64,000 nucleotides of DNA from Candidatus Saccharimonadales bacterium (GCA_041737385.1 JBGSRU010000002.1:56761-120760); one strand, 5' to 3'; shown: positions 28,307-52,379, counted from the stretch's first letter. Numbers and translations: made by a program. Notes: a model not told the origin generated them from the sequence alone.

Positions 28307-28380
28307 TGGCTGGGAATGAGGGATTCGAACCCCCGATCGCGGAACCAGAATCCGCTGCCTTACCACTTGGCCAATTCCCA
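28307..28380 (-). tRNA. tRNA-Gln (anticodon CUG), CCA encoded
   Basis: The reverse complement folds as a cloverleaf: acceptor UGGGAAU/AUUCCCA with U1-A72 and discriminator G73 (a bacterial tRNA-Gln hallmark), 3-bp D stem GCC/GGC, anticodon stem GCGGA/UCCGC with loop UUCUGGU, and T arm GGGGG-UUCGAAU-CCCUC. Confidence 0.9.
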
Positions 28381-43317: not shown

Positions 43318-43760
43318 GCACAATTTTCGATAAGATAGTTTCTGGAGAGATGAAATCATGGATAGTCTGGGAAGATGAAAATTATTTGGCGTTTCTAACT
43401 CCTTTTCCTAATACACCTGGATTTACTGTGGTGATTCCTAAAGAAAATATGAGTGACTACTTATTCAGCATGGAAGACGATGCTTATTCAGAGTTGTTAC
43501 TAGCATCAAGAAAAGTTGTAAAGAAACTAGAGAAAGCATTTGATACGCCTCGAGTTGCAATGATTGTTGAAGGAACAGGTGTCGCACATGTACACATAAA
43601 GTTATTGCCACTAATTGGAGAGCTTGCAGGACAGACAGATGTTTGGAGTAAAGAAAAAGAGTTTCACTCAGAATATATTGGTTATATTACTTCAGCTGAA
43701 GGCCCTAAAATGGACGACGTAGTACTAGAAGAAATACAAAAGAGGATTATAGAGTCATGA
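43314..43760 (+). CDS. HIT-family (Hint-like) protein with a non-canonical histidine-triad region
   Basis: Hint-like N-terminus IFDKIVSGEMKSWIVWEDENYLAFLTPFPNTPGFTVVIPKENM, but the triad region reads VAHVHIKLLP rather than HxHxHxx. 4-nt overlap with both neighbours. Confidence 0.6.
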   Translation: MSTIFDKIVSGEMKSWIVWEDENYLAFLTPFPNTPGFTVVIPKENMSDYLFSMEDDAYSELLLASRKVVKKLEKAFDTPRVAMIVEGTGVAHVHIKLLPLIGELAGQTDVWSKEKEFHSEYIGYITSAEGPKMDDVVLEEIQKRIIES

Positions 43761-46276
43761 AAGTTAGTTTAAATTTAGCTCAAGAGTTCAGTAATGTTGA
43801 TTTGAAGTCTATTCCTCATGATGAACTCGTAACTAAGATTGGCGCTCAACTAGGTGCCGTTGAAGAAGTAGTCGACTATGCACCACGATATAAAAATATA
43901 GTTGTAGTGAAAGTTGTTGAGTGTAAGAAGCATCCGAACGCTGACAAGCTTAGTCTGTGTCGCGTTGATGACGGAGGAGTTACTGCAAACGTTGAAAGAG
44001 GTGATGATGGGCTGGTCCAAGTCGTGTGTGGAGCACCGAACGTAAAAGCTGGAATGTTTGCAGTCTGGATACCACCTGAAGCAACAGTGCCAAGTACGCT
44101 CGACAAAGAATCATTCGTACTAGAAGCACGCGAACTGCGGGGTAAGGTAAGTAATGGTATGCTCGCGAGTCCCAAAGAGCTCGCAATTAGTGAAGAACAT
44201 GACGGTATCCTTGAGCTCACTGAGCAAGACGCTGGCCGTGAGCCAAAAATTGGCGAGTCTATAACGCATTATTTTGGGCTCGATGACTTTGTTATCGATT
44301 GTGAAAACAAAATGTTCACTCATCGTCCTGATTGTTTTGGTAATCTTGGTGTTGCACGTGAGCTAGCAGGGATTAGTGGACTAAAGTTTGAAAGCCCCAA
44401 GTGGTATTTAAATCTGCCTATTTTTGAATCACCAGATAAATTGCCTATGAAAGTTGAAAATAACGCCACTGAATTATCTAGCAGATTTACCGTAGTTACT
44501 ATGGACGGTATTAAAATCAAGTCTAGCCCAACTTGGATGACAAACTTACTGAAAAGAGTAGGAATCAAATCTATAAATAATGTAGTTGATATCACTAATT
44601 ATGTAATGCATTTAACCGGTCAGCCAATGCACGCATTTGACTATGACAAACTTCAGAAGTACTCTGACGAGCCGTCCATTCAAGTTCGAAACGCTCTAGA
44701 AAACGAAGAGATTACACTGCTGGGAAATAAGAAAATAGTCATGAATAGTTCGGATTTAGTTCTTGCGACCGATAAAACATCGGTTGATATTGCTGGAATA
44801 ATGGGTGGTGCTAACACTGAAGTTGATGATTCTACAAAACGTATCGTTCTGACATGCACGAACTTTGATATGTACGCAATTCGTCGTTCTAGTATGCGGC
44901 ACGGCTTGTTTACTGACGCAGTAACGAGAAATAATAAAGGAATTAGTCCTCTACAGAATGACAGAATAATTGCGTATGCCATGAAACTTATGACTGAACA
45001 CGCTGGGGCAGAGCAAGCTAGCCGAGTATACGATTTGAGTAGTTTTGATATCCACTCAGATAACTTGAACCACGTTGAGACAACAATTGAGTTTATCAAC
45101 CAGCGTCTGGGGACTTCACTCATGCCCGAAGAAGTTAAAAACCTTTTAGAAAATGTTGAATTTAGTGTTGCGCTTCAAGGAGAAACACTACTTATTACTG
45201 CACCATTCTGGAGAATGGATATTGCGATTGGTGAGGATATCGTTGAAGAAGTGGGTCGGTTATATGGGTATCAAAATGTTCCTACAATTTTGCCAGCACG
45301 AACTTCTAAACCTGCTAATAGAAATAAAGGAAGAGATTTTACGCGTCATATACGGTATACGCTGCGCAAAGCTGGTGCTAATGAAGTACTAACATATAGT
45401 TTCGTGCACGGTGACCTGCTGAAGAATACGGGTACGGATCCTGAAAAGTGGGCCTACCATGTGCGTAACGCGCTTAGTCCCGACCTGCAGTATTATCGAA
45501 CGAGCTTAGCGCCAAGTCTACTAGCGAAGATACATAGCAATCTGAAAGCAGGTGCCGGCAGGGGCGACAATGAGTTTGCTTTGTTTGAAGTAGGAAAAGT
45601 ACATGTAAAAGGTGAAATGGAGCACGATGAGCCAACACTTCCAAAGCAGATGAAGCGAATAGCATTTGTCTATGCCGCCGATGATAAAACGGCCAAAAAA
45701 TATCACGGCTCGCCGTACTATCAAGCTAAAAAATATCTTGATAGTATTACTCACGGACAAGCGACATATAGCCCACTCGATACAAACGAGTATCCGGTTG
45801 TGTCTGCATATGAGCAATCACGCTCAGCAGTTGTCACCGTCAACGAACAGATACTTGGTGTGATTGGCGAGTATACTTCAAACGCGAAAAAACACCTTAA
45901 ACTCCCAGCTTTTTGTGCTGGATTTGAACTAGATGTTGATTTATTAAAACAACATCTTAACCAAGAGACGTATAGCCCATTATCAACGTATCCAGATACT
46001 CTGCAGGACATAACCTTTGAAGTTGAATCTGATGTTAGCTGGGGGCATCTTGAGCAGCTTCTCCATGCAGAACTAGCAGTAGCTAAAGCAGAAAGTGGCT
46101 ACGACTACACGATTGAGCCTCTAGATATCTTTAAAAAAGAGGATGATAATAGGCGCATTAGTTACCGTATACAGCTTACACACCACAATAAAACGATGAA
46201 AACTGAAGAAGTTAATAGCTTGTTAGATCAAATCGCAAAGGCAGCTCATGAGAATCTTCACGCAAAACGCATATAA
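43757..46276 (+). CDS. pheT: Phenylalanyl-tRNA synthetase beta subunit
   Basis: 839 aa with an N-terminal tRNA-binding (EMAP-like) domain, B3/B4, B5 and a C-terminal FDX-ACB-like region. Confidence 0.9.
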   Translation: MKVSLNLAQEFSNVDLKSIPHDELVTKIGAQLGAVEEVVDYAPRYKNIVVVKVVECKKHPNADKLSLCRVDDGGVTANVERGDDGLVQVVCGAPNVKAGMFAVWIPPEATVPSTLDKESFVLEARELRGKVSNGMLASPKELAISEEHDGILELTEQDAGREPKIGESITHYFGLDDFVIDCENKMFTHRPDCFGNLGVARELAGISGLKFESPKWYLNLPIFESPDKLPMKVENNATELSSRFTVVTMDGIKIKSSPTWMTNLLKRVGIKSINNVVDITNYVMHLTGQPMHAFDYDKLQKYSDEPSIQVRNALENEEITLLGNKKIVMNSSDLVLATDKTSVDIAGIMGGANTEVDDSTKRIVLTCTNFDMYAIRRSSMRHGLFTDAVTRNNKGISPLQNDRIIAYAMKLMTEHAGAEQASRVYDLSSFDIHSDNLNHVETTIEFINQRLGTSLMPEEVKNLLENVEFSVALQGETLLITAPFWRMDIAIGEDIVEEVGRLYGYQNVPTILPARTSKPANRNKGRDFTRHIRYTLRKAGANEVLTYSFVHGDLLKNTGTDPEKWAYHVRNALSPDLQYYRTSLAPSLLAKIHSNLKAGAGRGDNEFALFEVGKVHVKGEMEHDEPTLPKQMKRIAFVYAADDKTAKKYHGSPYYQAKKYLDSITHGQATYSPLDTNEYPVVSAYEQSRSAVVTVNEQILGVIGEYTSNAKKHLKLPAFCAGFELDVDLLKQHLNQETYSPLSTYPDTLQDITFEVESDVSWGHLEQLLHAELAVAKAESGYDYTIEPLDIFKKEDDNRRISYRIQLTHHNKTMKTEEVNSLLDQIAKAAHENLHAKRI

Positions 46277-48029
46277 GCTACTGAAGTGCACTTTGATCGC
46301 TAGCATTTTCTCCATACTGTTAGTTGCTTCGTCATCAGCTCAAGGAGTGCAAGATTTTGTTATTACATCCTTTGACGCGTCATATGAATTAACCAATGAA
46401 GATCCTCAAGGGTTGTTAAAAATAACCGAGACTATAGAGCTGAACTTCAGTGGTCAAAATCAAGGAATTCTGCGGGCGATACCAAATGACTATAAAGGCA
46501 ACAAACAAAATGTGAAGATAGTATCAGTTCAAAGAGCAACCACGACCAGTGCTGAGGCTATGCCTTATAGGCAGGAACCATATTTTACCTATCTGGAAAA
46601 TGGCAATCTTATCGTGCGCATCGGACAGGCGGGAGTTTATATAACTGGTCCACAGAGCTACGAACTAACTTATGAAGTTGAAAACGTCATTACATTTTAT
46701 GATGACTATGATGAATTGTTCTGGGATATAAATGGTGATCAGTGGCTACAACCGTTTGTAACAGTGTCTGTAGAAGCGAGAACAAGTGCGAGAATCCGAG
46801 ATCCAGGAGTGATTTGTTATGCAGGAGCAAATGACTCTAAAGAACAATCATGTGATGTAACGAGTGAAGCCACAGTGTTCTCAGTAAACACCACTAGGGC
46901 TCTTGATAAAGGAGAGACGCTGAGCGTCGTTGCTGCATTCGAAAAGGATTATTTTACGCCGTTATCTTGGTGGGAAGTGAATAAAAACTTCGTTTTGGTG
47001 AGCCCGATATTTTTGCTTCAAGCCGCAGCAGGTCGTTCGGCCTACAAAAAATGGAAAAAATACGGTAAAGACTACAAGAAGCGCGGGATCACCGTACCGT
47101 ACTTTGGTCGCCCTAAAAACGTTAGTGTGATGCAGGCAGCATACGTCGTCGGCAACAAGTTTGTAGCAACACACATTACGGCTTCTATTGTCGATTTAGC
47201 TATTAGGGGCTATATACAAATAACGGAAAAGAAGGATGGTCGTATAGTTACGCACGAACTGACAATTGTTAAAGTCGTAGACGAAACGCTCACTGATGAC
47301 GAGCAAACGCTCATAAAGGAAATATTTGGAAGCGCGTCTGTAGGCAACACGATCAAACTTGAAAACGAGAAAAATAAATTATATAAAGCAGTCACAAAGC
47401 TGTCAAAACTAATCGATGAAAGTATGTTTGAGAAGGGTTACTACGAACTGTCTCCCACCAATGCATACAAAAAAATCGGTTCAACATTTTTTTTGAGTAT
47501 TGTAGCGATTGTTATAGGGTTTGCAGCGGCAAGCTATAGTCAAGGAACTACAGCAATTACGAGCATAGTTCTCATAATAGTAGTTATTGTTTTTACAGCG
47601 TTGATGAGCAAACGGAGTAAATCTGGAATGATGTTAGTTGAACACATGGAAGGCCTTAAGCTCTACCTAAAACAGGCTGAGAAGGACAGGATTCAGCAAC
47701 AAGATGCAGTTGAGGCTCCGTTAGCTGTGAATAGTGGTCAGCCTGTAAGAGACGTAAAATTTTTCGAGAAGCTACTGCCATACGCAATTGTTATGGGTGT
47801 CGAAAAATCATGGGCTGGTGCATTCAAAGATATCTACACCCAACCACCAGAGTGGTACGGTGGTAACTGGAACACCTTCACAACCGCCGCTTTGATTAGT
47901 GGTATTGCCAATACGAACGCTGCAACGGTAGCGTCATTTTCAGCGCCGGCCAGCTCAAGCGGTTCTGGTTTCTCTGGAGGCGGAGGCGCTGGTGGCGGCG
48001 GTGGCGGCGGAGGCGGCGGAGGCTGGTGA
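46248..48029 (+). CDS. DUF2207-family membrane protein with a Gly-rich C-terminal tail
   Basis: N-terminal signal/TM segment, a large extracytoplasmic domain, TM helices, and a C-terminus SGFSGGGGAGGGGGGGGGGGW, which is characteristic of DUF2207. Confidence 0.6.
   Translation: MRIFTQNAYKLLKCTLIASIFSILLVASSSAQGVQDFVITSFDASYELTNEDPQGLLKITETIELNFSGQNQGILRAIPNDYKGNKQNVKIVSVQRATTTSAEAMPYRQEPYFTYLENGNLIVRIGQAGVYITGPQSYELTYEVENVITFYDDYDELFWDINGDQWLQPFVTVSVEARTSARIRDPGVICYAGANDSKEQSCDVTSEATVFSVNTTRALDKGETLSVVAAFEKDYFTPLSWWEVNKNFVLVSPIFLLQAAAGRSAYKKWKKYGKDYKKRGITVPYFGRPKNVSVMQAAYVVGNKFVATHITASIVDLAIRGYIQITEKKDGRIVTHELTIVKVVDETLTDDEQTLIKEIFGSASVGNTIKLENEKNKLYKAVTKLSKLIDESMFEKGYYELSPTNAYKKIGSTFFLSIVAIVIGFAAASYSQGTTAITSIVLIIVVIVFTALMSKRSKSGMMLVEHMEGLKLYLKQAEKDRIQQQDAVEAPLAVNSGQPVRDVKFFEKLLPYAIVMGVEKSWAGAFKDIYTQPPEWYGGNWNTFTTAALISGIANTNAATVASFSAPASSSGSGFSGGGGAGGGGGGGGGGGW
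47976..48026 (+). repeat. (GGN)n simple-sequence tract encoding poly-Gly
   Basis: ggaggcggaggcgctggtggcggcggtggcggcggaggcggcggaggctgg. Confidence 0.8.
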
Positions 48030-49201
48030 ACTATCTAAGCAAATTCACTACCTTACCTAAGCCGGTCAAAGCACTCACATTAGAACAATTTTTTGAGGGG
48101 TTTGTTCCTATTACCGCGCTCTACGTGCTTGTTTTTGATCGTGTTGGCGGATTATCATTTCAGCAGATTAGCATATTATTTTCAGTCTGGTCAGCTGCTT
48201 TCTTAATTGCTGAGCTTCCGAGCGGAATACTTGCAGATTATTGGTCAAGAAAAAACGTAATAGTATTAGGTGGTTTTTTACGTGCTTGTGGATTTCTGTT
48301 TTGGATATTTTATCCAAGTTTTTGGGGGTATTTACTCGGCTTTGCTTTATGGGGATTTATGATAGCCTGTAGCTCAGGTTCGACTAGTGCCTTCTTAAGA
48401 TCAGAATTAGAGGCAACCAAAAATGAAAAAAAGTTTACAAAATACTATGGATTAACAGCCGCAGCCCTATCTAGTGGAGCATTATTAGGTTATATTATTG
48501 CATCGATATTAACAGTAGAACATTCATCTGCGTTACTTTATTTATCTTTCTTAAGTTCCTTATTGGGTGGGATAAGTCTGCTTTTTGTAAACGAAGCTAG
48601 CTATAGTCGTCAGTCGTCATATTTAGAAACACTGCGAAGCGGCTTAAGGGAGTTTGCAGTGTCTCGTAAACTGCAAATAATCGGATTTATATTATTCTCA
48701 GTATTTATGATTTACGGCGTTCTTGAAGAGTTTGTTCCTCGTTTATATGCCAGTTTTGGTCTTTCTGATAGCAAAATAGCACTTATCGTCGCGACTACTT
48801 ATGTTTTCTCAATCACATTGTTACTGCGTCTTGAACGATATGTAAACTTTTCTTTAGCAAGTCAGACTTTTGGTATTATCTCTGGCGTTAGCTTTTTAAT
48901 TATTGGCTTGTTATTCACTGGATATAGCGCGGCTGCAATGGTCCTGATATTTAGCTTGGTTTTGGAACTAGCTCGTTCATTGTTTTTACATCATGTGCAG
49001 AGTGAAATTAAAGGAAACGAAAAAGCTACAATCGCATCCATACCAGGACTAGCTGGAGGACTCATAGGAGCAATTGCCTATGTTGTTATTAGCATTCTGT
49101 CTAGCTTTGTAGGAGATAATCGATCTTTACAAATGTACGCATTTTTTTGGATCTTGGCTCTGATTCCAGTTGTTTTATATTCTCGCAAGATAAAACTGTA
49201 G
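48026..49201 (+). CDS. MFS transporter
   Basis: Twelve-TM profile with the MFS loop GILADYWSRK. Confidence 0.75.
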   Translation: MNYLSKFTTLPKPVKALTLEQFFEGFVPITALYVLVFDRVGGLSFQQISILFSVWSAAFLIAELPSGILADYWSRKNVIVLGGFLRACGFLFWIFYPSFWGYLLGFALWGFMIACSSGSTSAFLRSELEATKNEKKFTKYYGLTAAALSSGALLGYIIASILTVEHSSALLYLSFLSSLLGGISLLFVNEASYSRQSSYLETLRSGLREFAVSRKLQIIGFILFSVFMIYGVLEEFVPRLYASFGLSDSKIALIVATTYVFSITLLLRLERYVNFSLASQTFGIISGVSFLIIGLLFTGYSAAAMVLIFSLVLELARSLFLHHVQSEIKGNEKATIASIPGLAGGLIGAIAYVVISILSSFVGDNRSLQMYAFFWILALIPVVLYSRKIKL

Positions 49202-49226
49202 CTTCTTTCTGTTATACTACTATCTA

Positions 49227-49347
49227 TTAACAATTAAACAATATACAGAGAGTCGGAAGGGAACTAGCCCGCTAAAACCGATCAGCAACCGACTCAAAAA
49301 TGTAAGGTGCTACGTCTAGCTTGTCCGTATTGGTCAAGAAAGATATT
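49227..49347 (+). ncRNA. SAM riboswitch aptamer (S-box / SAM-I-like), copy A; no evident expression platform
   Basis: CAGAGAGTCGGAAGGGAACTAGCCCGCTAAAACCGATCAGCAACC...TAAGGTGCTACGTCTAGC...CAAGAAAGATATT matches the S-box cores (AGAGAGG.GGAGGGA.UGGCCCG.UGAAACC..GCAACC...GGUGC). It is ~95% identical to copy B over ~120 nt. Confidence 0.6.
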
Positions 49348-49602
49348 CATATACACTCAGTTAAATCTTCAAAAGAACATGCTGTCAACGTGCTACTGAT
49401 TCGGCTTACCTTGCGAAAACAAGACTCAATCTTTATTGGTGGCGGTCTGAATGACATGCAATTATTCCCTTCAAGTGGTCTGAGAGTCGTGATGGGTAAT
49501 GCCATACCTAAACTAAAGGAGCAATCTGATCTTGTAATCGGTGATGTGAACGATAATGGGCTGGCAGATTATTTAGAAACTTTAATTACAAGAGGAAAAT
49601 AA
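49321..49602 (+). pseudogene. C-terminal remnant of a Cof-type (HAD-IIB) phosphatase
   Basis: Only the last ~50 aa of a ~270-aa family are present (GGGLNDMQLF...VVMGNA...ADYL). The ORF in the track starts at TTG inside the riboswitch; the first ATG is at 49456. Confidence 0.5.
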
Positions 49603-50333
49603 TGAATGGTAAAATTATTCTAATAACTGGATCGTCCAGAGGTATCGGAAAGTCCACAGCTGAGCTGGCCTACAAACAAGGCGCAAAAGTAATTGTGCAC
49701 GGAAAAACTAAAACTAAAGAGCTCGAGGATTTTGCAGCAAGTATTAATGCCAGCATTTGTTGTTTTGATGTTACGAACAAAGGAGAAGCAACTAAAGCCA
49801 TTAATGAGATACTAACGCAAGTTACAAGAATTGATATTTTGGTGAATTCTGCTGGAATAGTTAAAGTAGAGCCATTTCTCGAGGCTTCAGACGAGAACTG
49901 GCTAGAAAATTTTCAAGCAAATTTTTTGGGGACAGTTCACGTTATCCAGTCTGTATTGCCGAATATGTTGGAACATGAATCGGGCAGCATAGTGAATGTC
50001 TCATCTATTAGAGGTGAGAGAACCATGGCCTCTAACCGAGGGATGGCGTACTCTGCAAGCAAAGCAGCGGTTATTAACCTTACATCAGGGCTTGCGAAAG
50101 AGTACGCTCCAAATATCAGAGTTAACTCTGTTGCGCCCGGATTTACGCTGACCGATATGAGCAAGACCTGGAACGATACGGTACGTAATCAGGTAAAAAC
50201 TGCTTTGCTTGGACGAGGAGCGAAACCTACAGAAATCGCAGAAGCGATATTATTTCTTGCAGGCGACAAAGCAAGTTTTATCACAGGCCAAACTATTGAT
50301 GTCGACGGCGGTTACGAAATTTCAGGAAAGTAG
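49602..50333 (+). CDS. SDR-family oxidoreductase (FabG-like)
   Basis: TGSSRGIGK cofactor motif, NSAG, and catalytic YSASKAAV. Confidence 0.85.
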   Translation: MNGKIILITGSSRGIGKSTAELAYKQGAKVIVHGKTKTKELEDFAASINASICCFDVTNKGEATKAINEILTQVTRIDILVNSAGIVKVEPFLEASDENWLENFQANFLGTVHVIQSVLPNMLEHESGSIVNVSSIRGERTMASNRGMAYSASKAAVINLTSGLAKEYAPNIRVNSVAPGFTLTDMSKTWNDTVRNQVKTALLGRGAKPTEIAEAILFLAGDKASFITGQTIDVDGGYEISGK

Positions 50334-50349
50334 TGACTAAAAAATGAAC

Positions 50350-51036
50350 TTATTGAATTGCATAGACGGTTTGCAACCCGCGGATAGCATCAATATTTCC
50401 TAACACATTTGGGAACAATTCGGCGGCTTCTGCTGTGTGCCACTGATGGTTTTCAAGTAATACGCATTCACCATCAAGGTATTGCATAAGCCTTTGCTGA
50501 GTTGTCTCCACGAGTTCGTCCAGATAGGCGAAAGCACGCGATTTAAATTCAGGGAACGGCATACCAAAACTAGATGAATCTGCATCAGCAATAATGCCTG
50601 TTCGGTAGTCTGCCGGATCAACATTTTGAATGAGTCGTGGAAAAAATGATTTTACAGTAGTTGCTATTACTAATTTGCCAACATCCTCAACATGTTCGGG
50701 TTCAAAGCAAGTAAATGGTTTCATCATATTGACAGTAATTTCTGCACTTCTTTTTTCATTGTGTCCTTTACGTTTTGGGTCATAGAACAGATCATGACCT
50801 CCGGCTGCTATGACAAGAATCGGTACGTCTTGGTCTGTTATCTTGCCCTTTTCTAGGGCCAATGCTGCAATAGCACGCGTAGAAGCAACTACGTCGATAG
50901 TATGTTGTCTATTATGGTATTTTTGCGGAAATCTTCCGTCTGGCCCATAGAGTCGGTCAATCCTAAGAAGCTGTTGTTCGACTATAGCTTCGCCGGCTTC
51001 ATGCATACTTTCGATTTGAGTCGCGGTTAGTCCCAT
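50350..51036 (-). CDS. HD-domain phosphohydrolase
   Basis: HNRQHTIDV...AAGGHDL (H...HD...D). Confidence 0.6.
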   Translation of the reverse strand: MGLTATQIESMHEAGEAIVEQQLLRIDRLYGPDGRFPQKYHNRQHTIDVVASTRAIAALALEKGKITDQDVPILVIAAGGHDLFYDPKRKGHNEKRSAEITVNMMKPFTCFEPEHVEDVGKLVIATTVKSFFPRLIQNVDPADYRTGIIADADSSSFGMPFPEFKSRAFAYLDELVETTQQRLMQYLDGECVLLENHQWHTAEAAELFPNVLGNIDAIRGLQTVYAIQ

Positions 51037-51108
51037 GATAATTAAATCATACTATACCACAATTAATATATTTCATGTAATCGAATGACAGGTGCTATGA
51101 TTAGGATA

Positions 51109-51231
51109 TTAACAATTAAACAATATACAGAGAGTCGGAAGGGAACTAGCCCGCTATAACCGATCAGCAACCTGCTTTAAAAAAAGTAAGGTGCTACGTC
51201 TAGCTTGTCCATATTGGTCAAGAAAGATATT
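51109..51231 (+). ncRNA. SAM riboswitch aptamer (S-box / SAM-I-like), copy B, controlling metK
   Basis: Same aptamer as copy A. It is followed by ATATCCT (51242-51248), a perfect complement of the metK ribosome-binding site AGGATAT (51269-51275), which suggests a sequestering hairpin. Confidence 0.8.
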
Positions 51232-51281
51232 GCATTTGTACATATCCTACTGCCCTTATGTGGACGGAAGGATATTTTTAT

Positions 51282-52379
51282 ATGAGTTATCAACTATTTA
51301 CAAGTGAGTCTGTCACCGCTGGACATCCAGACAAAATCGCAGACGCGATCAGCGATGCGATTCTAGATGCGCTACTTGAGCAAGATCCAAATGCTCGTGC
51401 TGGCCTAGAGACAATCGTTGGAGCCAACAAAATAGGATTATTTGGTGAGATTAAAACTAAAGCAAAAGTTGATTTTGAAGCTATTACAAAAGATACAGTG
51501 AAGCGGCTTGGCTACACGAACTTGAACTGGAACTTTTCCAATGAATCACCAATAGAAAACAATATTCATCAGCAATCTCCAGAAATAGCGATGGGTGTTG
51601 ATAATGATGGTGCTGGTGACCAAGGAATGATGTTTGGCTTTGCGTGCAACGAAACAGATGAATTCATGCCACTGCCTATTACGATTGCCCATGCGTTAAC
51701 GCGAGCTCTTGATGAAGCCCGTGAATCAAGTAGTATCGATTTCGTACGCCCAGATGGTAAAAGCCAAGTAACGGTTGCTTACGAAAACGGAAAACCTGTA
51801 GCTATAGAAAAAGTAGTTATGGCGGTAGCCCATGATGAAAAAGCTTCAGCAGAACATGTCCGCGAAGTTATAAAAGATAAGATTATCGATGTGGTTTTAG
51901 CTCAATACGGATATGAAGTAGCAAATAAACAAGTAGTGATTAATGGTACGGGTTTGTGGCACATCCCTGGGCCTGATTCTGATGCAGGTCTCACTGGACG
52001 CAAAATAGTCGTTGATGGCTACGCGCGAGTCGGTGGCGGTGCTTTCAGTGGCAAAGATCCAAGTAAAGTTGATAGATCTGGCGCCTACGCAGCTCGCTAT
52101 ATTGCGAAGAACATTGTGGCAGCTGGACTTGCGACAAAATGTGAAGTAGCGCTTGCATTCGTCATTGGACAGGCTGACCCTCAAATGAAAGCTTTTGACT
52201 GTTTCGGCACAGAAACTAAGTCCCTTGATGAAATACAGGAATTTGTAGATGGCCTGCTTGATACTACCGTTCGCGGAATAGTTGAAGGCTTAGATCTACG
52301 TCGACCAATCTATTCAAGCACAACCGCCTACGGTCATTTCGGTAAAATAGATTTACCATGGGAAAAGATTAAAAAATAA
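51282..52379 (+). CDS. metK: S-adenosylmethionine synthetase
   Basis: MSYQLFTSESVTAGHPDKIADAISDAILDA, GAGDQGMMFG and GAFSGKDPSKVDRSGAYAARYIAKN. I start at ATG 51282 because a GGAAGGA ribosome-binding site precedes it; the ORF in the track begins 24 nt earlier. Confidence 0.9.
   Translation: MSYQLFTSESVTAGHPDKIADAISDAILDALLEQDPNARAGLETIVGANKIGLFGEIKTKAKVDFEAITKDTVKRLGYTNLNWNFSNESPIENNIHQQSPEIAMGVDNDGAGDQGMMFGFACNETDEFMPLPITIAHALTRALDEARESSSIDFVRPDGKSQVTVAYENGKPVAIEKVVMAVAHDEKASAEHVREVIKDKIIDVVLAQYGYEVANKQVVINGTGLWHIPGPDSDAGLTGRKIVVDGYARVGGGAFSGKDPSKVDRSGAYAARYIAKNIVAAGLATKCEVALAFVIGQADPQMKAFDCFGTETKSLDEIQEFVDGLLDTTVRGIVEGLDLRRPIYSSTTAYGHFGKIDLPWEKIKK

Follow-up and report, generated by a model that had tools for sequence, protein, structure and literature searches.

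A second SAM-I aptamer upstream of the metK riboswitch is probably a severed leader left at a recombination junction

The 64-kb stretch of DNA analysed here (the window) carries two copies of a SAM-I riboswitch aptamer on the same strand. Copy B lies directly upstream of metK, and copy A, 1.9 kb before it, precedes a fragment of a HAD phosphatase gene and an SDR gene. This raises the question of how a SAM aptamer came to stand in front of genes with which it has no evident connection. The first-pass annotation had described copy A as an orphan duplicate of the metK aptamer and had offered two readings: the footprint of a segmental duplication and deletion that destroyed a second SAM-regulated gene, or a decoy acting in trans. 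We compared the locus with related loci, referred to below by L numbers, and find that copy A is probably a metK leader that was severed from its gene and left behind at a recombination junction. The features of the locus are collected in Table 1.

Table 1. Features of the DUF2207-metK interval, in window coordinates
Feature	Position	Strand	Basis or remark
DUF2207 membrane protein gene, conserved left border of the slot	46248-48029	+	Pfam DUF2207, DUF2207_C
MFS transporter gene	48026-49201	+	Pfam MFS_1
Extended -10 element pA, TGTTATACT	49210-49218	+	read from sequence; 6 nt before copy A
Copy A, 5' leader and SAM-I aptamer, cut at the P1 3' strand	49225-49347	+	repeat, Rfam, alignment
GAGTCGG, 5' arm of the alternative helix (normally J1/2 and P2 5' strand)	49250-49256	+	MFE fold
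CCGACTC, mutated P3 5' strand	49289-49295	+	perfect complement of 49250-49256; CCTGCTT in copy B
Junction microhomology, AAAGATATT	49339-49347	+	last 9 nt of the aptamer (P1 3' strand) = HAD codons K-D-I
HAD C-terminal remnant (Cof-type phosphatase), about 87 codons	49339-49602	+	Pfam Hydrolase_3, 180-255 of 255
SDR oxidoreductase gene, intact, own Shine-Dalgarno AGAGGA	49602-50333	+	Pfam adh_short
228-aa protein, weak HD/PDEase-like match	50350-51036	-	left neighbour of the metK leader in several relatives
Extended -10 element pB, TGCTATGAT	51093-51101	+	sequence; 5 nt before copy B
Copy B, 5' leader and SAM-I aptamer of the metK riboswitch	51107-51231	+	Rfam, fold, covariation
Expression-platform hairpin	51242-51275	+	anti-SD ATATCCT (51242-51248) pairs with AGGATAT (51269-51275) in the fold
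metK (SAM synthetase), 365 aa	51282-52379	+	Pfam S-AdoMet_synt N, M and C domains

Copy B, the metK leader family and the repeat

Copy B, together with the hairpin that follows it, reads as a complete translational metK riboswitch and as an ordinary member of the SAM-I family. It matches the Rfam SAM-I model (RF00162) end to end with 47.3 bits (gathering threshold 44.4), and its native-core fold lies 0.1 kcal/mol above the MFE. The 3' arm of the platform hairpin overlaps the Shine-Dalgarno sequence GGAAGGA (51266-51272), which precedes the metK ATG at 51282. In relatives, anti-Shine-Dalgarno and Shine-Dalgarno sequences change together, as ACTCCT/AGGAGT in L023, CTCC/GGAG in L014 and CCTTTC/GAAAGG in L005. 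The sole other Rfam hit in the window that reaches its gathering threshold is a tRNA gene at 28310-28380 (minus strand, 61.7 bits).

In a clade alignment of 16 leaders, copies A and B included, 98.9% of the cells are paired and nine pairs show compensatory changes, values that none of 500 shuffles reached. Covariation in this alignment supports the four-way junction P1-P4. AGAG in J1/2, GCAACC...GGUGC in P3 and the A-U/U-A pairs of P1 are invariant in all 16 leaders. The pseudoknot CUAG/CUAG between the P2 loop and J3-4 is 100% paired and never varies, and is thus without covariation support. Moreover, the unpaired 5' segment before P1 (ATTAACAATT...; 49225-49237 and 51107-51119) is invariant in 16/16 aligned leaders, for MetK proteins that are only 72-83% identical; this comparison took in L005, L009, L010, L014-L025 and the two window copies. 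Across the first 25 nt of the leader the window and L016-L025 do not differ, L014 departs from them at one base, and an extended -10 element (TGnTATnnT) is located 5-7 nt before ATTAAC in the related leaders. In L014 (1425-1450), where the leader precedes an intact metK, the P2 3' strand is interrupted by an additional ~17-nt hairpin (GAAACUAAAGUUUC).

Copy A (123 nt) and copy B (125 nt) are direct repeats at a spacing of 1882-1884 nt and are 93.5% identical if a 2-nt indel is counted, which bears out the earlier description of a block of ~120 nt that occurs twice, 1.9 kb apart, at ~95% identity. A 23-nt core has exactly two occurrences in the 64-kb window, with none expected by chance, and the first 50 nt of the two copies are identical. 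In both copies the left end of the repeat is the conserved leader start, 5-6 nt past the extended -10 element. Single differences (copy A/copy B) are found in the P2 bulge (49275, A/T) and in the P4 loop (49327, G/A). The remaining ones cluster at 49291-49301, where copy A has G at 49291, A at 49292, C at 49295, a 2-nt deletion and T at 49301, such that CCTGCTTTAAAAAAAGT in copy B becomes CCGACTC--AAAAATGT in copy A. This cluster had been assigned to an internal loop, but it sits in the distal stem and apical loop of P3. None of the differences falls in an invariant column of the leader alignment.

No two sampled leaders are closer to each other than copies A and B, which also share two states that are rare elsewhere, GGGAACTAG and the P4 loop TATTGG. 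Copy A is 91.8% identical to the L024 leader and copy B 89.5% identical to that of L016. The identity between A and B is only just above the former value and within the between-lineage range, and recent copying inside this genome is not required to account for it. The P3 apex gathers differences in three independent pairs of near-identical leaders (L016/L024, L017/L018 and copy A/copy B), often as runs of adjacent bases, e.g. ACAT versus TTTG in L017 and L018. Either a mutational hot spot or weak constraint may lie behind this.

Copy A: aptamer, promoter and predicted fold

Copy A gives a full-length match to RF00162 (positions 1-108) of 40.3 bits, below the threshold of 44.4, with an E-value of 4.6e-7 in a local search. 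With the SAM-I model, the covariance-model search that the first-pass annotation had suggested recovers both copies end to end, copy A below the gathering threshold. We rejected the low score as proof of decay, since three genuine metK-linked leaders also fall below 44.4 (L016, 43.3; L024, 43.1; L014, 36.5). P2, lower P3 and P4 of copy A are intact, and its distal P3 is reduced to two pairs flanked by mismatches. This too was rejected as proof of decay, because L005, L020, L023 and L024 likewise have little distal P3 pairing. Copy A retains the core nucleotides of the ligand pocket and the CUAG/CUAG pseudoknot.

A lesion specific to copy A is at the end of P1. The base that follows ...GATATT (49347) is C in copy A and G or T in 15/15 metK-linked aligned leaders, where a C-G pair or (after alignment) an A-U pair closes the helix at its outer end. 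P1 of copy A is thus left without its closing pair and consists of five A-U pairs. The resulting C.C at the P1 end is the only unpaired core cell in the 16-leader alignment that can be attributed to a given leader.

The predicted ground state of copy A is a non-aptamer fold with a new 7-bp helix between 49250-49256 and 49289-49295. The native-core fold is predicted to lie 5.5-7.0 kcal/mol above the MFE, compared to 0-1.5 kcal/mol for 13 of 14 metK-linked leaders. Three P3 substitutions make CCGACUC fully complementary to GAGUCGG in the J1/2-P2 strand. No other of the 64 base combinations at these three positions favours the misfold as strongly as the observed one, and in a simulation restricted to P3 only 3.3% of the random P3-apex mutation sets favour it as much. 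These two comparisons served as the null; a simulation with random mutations across the whole aptamer was set aside as unfair, since hits in the core helices dominate it. The pattern hints at a templated (quasi-palindrome) mutation or at selection that silenced the aptamer. It falls short of proof, since in L016/L024 and L017/L018, two other close strain pairs, most of the variation likewise sits at the P3 apex.

The extended -10 element pA is not flagged by a simple -35/-10 scan. Its flank is most similar to that of L014, and the flank of pB to that of L020, where an HD-like gene also lies upstream; the similarities of 16/22 and 17/20, respectively, exceed those to other loci by a small margin only. 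Upstream of the extended -10 element and leader start, the leaders of different gene arrangements share only the -10 consensus. Copy A is probably transcribed from its own promoter, and would form the 5' UTR of a HAD-remnant/SDR transcript, since the promoter-like element is intact and there is no terminator before 49602.

Between copy A and the SDR gene (49602) we found neither a terminator-like nor an anti-Shine-Dalgarno element, in line with the claim that copy A has no such partner, and by eye no pairing of a P1 strand with the Shine-Dalgarno region of SDR. A 396-nt fold considered for a hidden SDR platform gives a z-score of +0.9. Coupling of the aptamer to an expression platform, one mark of a SAM-I riboswitch, is found in copy B and is missing in copy A. 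Judged by the fold predictions and by what surrounds it, copy A is most likely no longer a SAM switch, because it has no platform, a P1 of five A-U pairs and a competing 7-bp helix. The intact SAM-contacting core and pseudoknot, on the other hand, argue against a loss of function, as do the several genuine leaders that also have a weak distal P3 or a sub-threshold Rfam score.

A variable slot between DUF2207 and metK

The PheT-DUF2207-...-metK neighbourhood is kept in all of the nearest sampled genomes, whose SDR, MFS and MetK proteins are 64-86%, 55-74% and 72-83% identical to those of the window; the closest relatives recovered stand at about 75-90% protein identity. Between DUF2207 and metK, the genes follow two main arrangements. 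In L005, L006 and L007 the order is DUF2207, a small ORF, HAD (256 aa), SDR, a 233-aa gene on the minus strand, leader and metK, and L009 and L020 have the same order without HAD (SDR-HD-like(-)-leader-metK). In L014 and L013, DUF2207 and MFS are followed by ~27 nt with TGCTATACTACTA, then by the leader and metK. In the window, the MFS stop codon (49201) is followed by 24 nt with TGTTATACTACTA and then by copy A. The window thus has the second arrangement up to the last base of the aptamer and the first arrangement from the middle of HAD onward. The stop codon of DUF2207 overlaps the MFS start in the window (TGGTGAACTATCTAA) and in L014 alike, and the window MFS is 74% identical to that of L014 and 55% identical to that of L015. 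Finally, a 9-nt tandem repeat (GGNGGCGGN) at 47975-48023 encodes a poly-glycine C-terminal tail of DUF2207, which ends in W-stop overlapping the GTG start of MFS, the same ending being found in L014.

A single leader stands directly before metK in 19/19 related loci with sequence covering the leader, and a leader before HAD or SDR was found in 0/19. Moreover, MFS lies directly upstream of HAD in no sampled relative. HAD therefore appears never to have been SAM-regulated, because relatives carry it intact without a leader in front. The suggestion to look in sister genomes for an intact gene behind a counterpart of copy A leads elsewhere: in L014 the gene that follows is metK, and where HAD is intact no leader precedes it.

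The gene directly upstream of the leader varies widely. It is DUF2207 in L016, L023, L024 and L025, an intact HAD in L017, SDR-HD-like in L020 and MFS in L013/L014 and L015; in L018 one gene lies between MFS and the leader (MFS plus APH-like). L017 and L018 have near-identical metK genes and leaders and carry different cassettes. In the L018 slot, which holds an APH-like gene of 369 aa, ~30 nt resembling the 3' end of HAD (about 1855-1900, compared with 1930-1967 in L017) adjoin the metK promoter and represent a second relic of cassette turnover. Judged by these gene orders, the interval from DUF2207 to the metK leader is a hypervariable cassette slot and putative recombination hot spot, even between near-identical strains.

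Protein identities along PheT and MetK are mosaic, which indicates recombination in both flanks. Residues 1-480 of PheT (43757-46276) are ~65-78% identical to L015 and 41-62% to L005/L009, and for residues 520-839 the values are 62-72% for L005/L009 and 56-62% for L015. MetK residues 31-120 are nearest to L005/L009 (85% versus 62-78% for others), and residues 271-365 to L016/L017 (87-92% versus 75-78%). The GC profile across the locus is flat, without a discontinuity. In L011 (116-856), the closest SDR relative, 90% identical over residues 88-243, is fused in frame to an unrelated DUF4760-like N-terminus. The fusion may be genuine or may come from a chimeric assembly, and L011 was dropped as a source of upstream context, being a 1.3-kb contig that looks chimeric.

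That copy A is followed by the C-terminal fragment of a Cof-type phosphatase and then by an SDR gene, as the first-pass annotation had it, is correct. The ORF at 49321-49602 matches positions 180-255 only of the 255 in the Hydrolase_3 profile, compared with lengths of 252-256 aa for the intact HAD proteins of relatives, and SDR is complete. It is also true that this ORF begins inside the aptamer, at a TTG (49321) upstream of the copy A end at 49347. No Shine-Dalgarno sequence precedes any in-frame start of the remnant, and its motif IV (49438-49446) is changed from GDG to GGG. The ~84 codons past the junction are free of stops. This suggests a young pseudogene. A search with the remnant returned only the 70-aa ORF annotated in the same genome and no closer full-length HAD. 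The SDR protein is 78-86% identical to its counterparts in L005 and L020, and a scan of a genome collection with it returned only distant loci (Mesorhizobium, Bacteroidetes); the upstream part of the SDR operon is missing in this genome.

The join between copy A and HAD lies within a microhomology of 6-9 nt, AAAGAT[ATT]. In the protein alignment the HAD homology starts with K-D-I-H-I in the window, compared with K-D-L-H-I in L005 and R-D-L-H-I in L010, and at the DNA level L005 has aaagattta where the window reads AAA GAT ATT. The repeat ends at the P1 3' strand because a chance sequence match sits there, and not because this is a functional boundary. A microhomology of this length points to an illegitimate recombination end.

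Origin of copy A and comparison with known systems

From these observations we infer the following course of events. The extended -10 element, the 13-nt 5' segment, the SAM-I aptamer, the SD-sequestering platform and metK would form a conserved module, and the genes between DUF2207 and this module would be swapped often. One parent, DUF2207-MFS-promoter-leader(-metK), would have been kept through the last base of the P1 3' strand, and another, (HAD)-SDR-HD-like(-)-promoter-leader-metK, from mid-HAD onward. Their join at the microhomology would be an illegitimate end; at the opposite end the exchange was probably homologous, which is the pattern of homology-facilitated illegitimate recombination (HFIR). 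One illegitimate and one homologous end would yield the observed structure in a single step. Alternatively, a fragment might have circularised through the microhomology and integrated by a crossover within the aptamer. By either route metK would keep a complete riboswitch, copy B, and HAD would be left as a dead fragment. As the identities of the flanks are mosaic and GC is flat, either MFS-pA-copy A or the block from the truncated HAD through SDR, HD-like and pB to copy B would fit as the incoming DNA.

We regard copy A as a severed leader and not as a randomly pasted piece because its promoter and its position match those of the leader-metK unit that follows DUF2207-MFS in L014. The label of an orphan duplicate consequently holds in part: copy A does hold a true SAM-I aptamer that has no platform, but its own promoter and the collinearity with L014 speak against a duplicate. 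Similarly, the proposed footprint of a segmental event stands as regards the rearrangement and the truncated HAD, but not as regards the destruction of a second SAM-regulated gene, as HAD is behind a leader in none of the 19 loci. Other observations weigh against a severed leader. The closeness of the promoter flanks to L014 and L020 is slight, there is no GC discontinuity, and copies A and B are each other's closest relatives with two shared rare states, which also fits a duplication within the genome or a later gene conversion. Such an intragenomic event would have started from an MFS gene already beside an intact HAD-SDR pair; a 123-nt piece of copy B would then have been copied 1.9 kb upstream in place of the 5' part of HAD, by template switching during replication or by tandem duplication followed by deletion. 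The microhomology at the junction is compatible with template switching, and the identical first 50 nt of the closest pair agree with local copying. Even so, we consider this course unlikely, as it leaves unexplained both the extended -10 element at the correct distance before copy A and the collinearity with L014, where metK follows the leader. It would moreover require MFS directly upstream of HAD, an order seen in no sampled relative, and the A-B identity is inside the between-lineage range. If the locus were mis-assembled, the real structures would be a normal DUF2207-MFS-leader-metK chromosome and, beside it, a separate circle of 1.88 kb, a tandem unit or a co-assembled second strain. In an independent k=31 assembly (Logan, SRR28170464) the contigs do break at the repeat, with L012 ending at 49254, L003 spanning 49245-51136 and L004 starting at 51127; the 50-nt identity makes a k=31 graph ambiguous at this point, and an alternative path through it gives an L014-like chromosome. 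However, a break at a 50-nt identical stretch is expected of a true two-copy repeat. A single contig, L003 (1892 bp), extends from the copy A variants across the aptamer/HAD junction and SDR to the HD-like gene, and an overlap of 9 nt cannot yield this junction at k=31. Furthermore, both copies lie within a single deposited contig of 531 kb, an ordinary read is longer than the 50 identical bases, and the order HD-like(-)-leader-metK agrees with the synteny of relatives. An assembly artefact, against which the first-pass annotation had cautioned, is thus very improbable, with the aptamer/HAD junction recovered in an independent assembly.

Could copy A have a function where it now stands? It might be a SAM-binding decoy or trans-acting RNA, as is reported for Listeria SreA, or a new cis-regulator that makes SDR responsive to SAM. 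The promoter-like element, the invariant core nucleotides and the pseudoknot are all kept, no A-B difference touches an invariant column, and no terminator separates copy A from SDR, which follows on the same strand. Yet there is also no terminator to delimit a small RNA, and no anti-Shine-Dalgarno sequence, terminator or alternative pairing links P1 to the Shine-Dalgarno sequence of SDR 250 nt away. P1 consists of five A-U pairs, the predicted misfold lies 5.5-7 kcal/mol below the aptamer fold, and the element is found before these genes in this genome only, so that conservation offers no evidence for it. We therefore hold a present function to be more doubtful still than an assembly error, and the decoy proposed at the outset, with its shortened P1, lack of a terminator and predicted non-aptamer ground state, finds no positive support. 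Least probable of all, in our estimate, is a snapshot of riboswitch recruitment, in which a promoter and an aptamer have arrived before SDR and the platform is yet to evolve. In such an intermediate, weak SAM-dependent control of the HAD-remnant/SDR transcript may already exist, for instance through a SAM-dependent fold that alters the stability of the RNA, the access of Rho, or a start at the TTG inside the aptamer (49321) that is coupled to translation of SDR. On this broader reading, the highly conserved metK leader may also serve as a recombination anchor of a gene-cassette slot in such small-genome bacteria.

If copy A is a severed leader, its case is one of ordinary genome turnover. An apparently orphan riboswitch can then arise without a regulatory purpose, when a conserved leader at the edge of a hot spot is cut at a chance microhomology. 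For annotation this advises caution: covariance-model matches beside unrelated genes, here SDR, are not members of a regulon by default. The slot, with DUF2207 on one side and a nearly invariant metK leader on the other, may be useful for the study of genome plasticity in small-genome, probably Patescibacteria-like, lineages. An active copy A would offer a natural intermediate of a rare kind in the expansion of a riboswitch regulon, but the evidence speaks against activity.

Compared with SAM-I (S-box) riboswitches of RF00162, copy B has the four-way P1-P4 architecture, the GCAACC/GGUGC and AGAG core, the pseudoknot and the SD-sequestering platform. Copy A has the same aptamer core. It differs from the family in lacking the platform and the closing P1 pair, in its sub-threshold score and predicted misfold, and in preceding a gene fragment and SDR, neither of which is, to our knowledge, part of a SAM regulon. 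The P3 changes resemble quasi-palindrome template-switch mutations, which convert an imperfect inverted repeat into a perfect one, in that clustered substitutions and an indel turn GAGTCGG...CCTGCTT into GAGTCGG...CCGACTC. Unlike in that model, the original complementarity amounted to just 4/7 Watson-Crick pairs, and the apex is hypervariable elsewhere, which fits drift as well.

In trans-acting SAM riboswitches, a complete riboswitch is terminated to give a discrete small RNA with defined targets. Copy A shares with them the SAM-I element and a possible RNA role beyond its original gene; in contrast to an SreA-like small RNA, it has no terminator between 49225 and SDR. Examples are SreA and SreB of Listeria and a SAM-I small RNA of Desulfovibrio (bioRxiv 10.1101/803072; review PMC8079631). 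HFIR, which combines one homologous and one illegitimate end (PMC3240628), is matched by the 6-9 nt microhomology at the junction and by the mosaic flanks, and the conserved flanks, DUF2207/PheT on one side and leader/metK on the other, might act as its homologous anchor. It differs in that the event left two copies of an anchor-like segment, which classical HFIR does not need. In the immunity gene arrays of the Vibrio cholerae type VI secretion system (T6SS), orphan genes result from sequential cassette displacement (PMC5361080). Here, too, a variable slot lies beside conserved genes and holds remnants of earlier occupants, the HAD fragment and the HAD 3' relic of L018. One of the pieces orphaned at the present locus is, in contrast to those arrays, a regulatory RNA leader and not a protein gene, and it has no apparent selective role. 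Copy A stands nearer to the orphans of cassette displacement than to the trans-acting SAM riboswitches of Listeria and Desulfovibrio.
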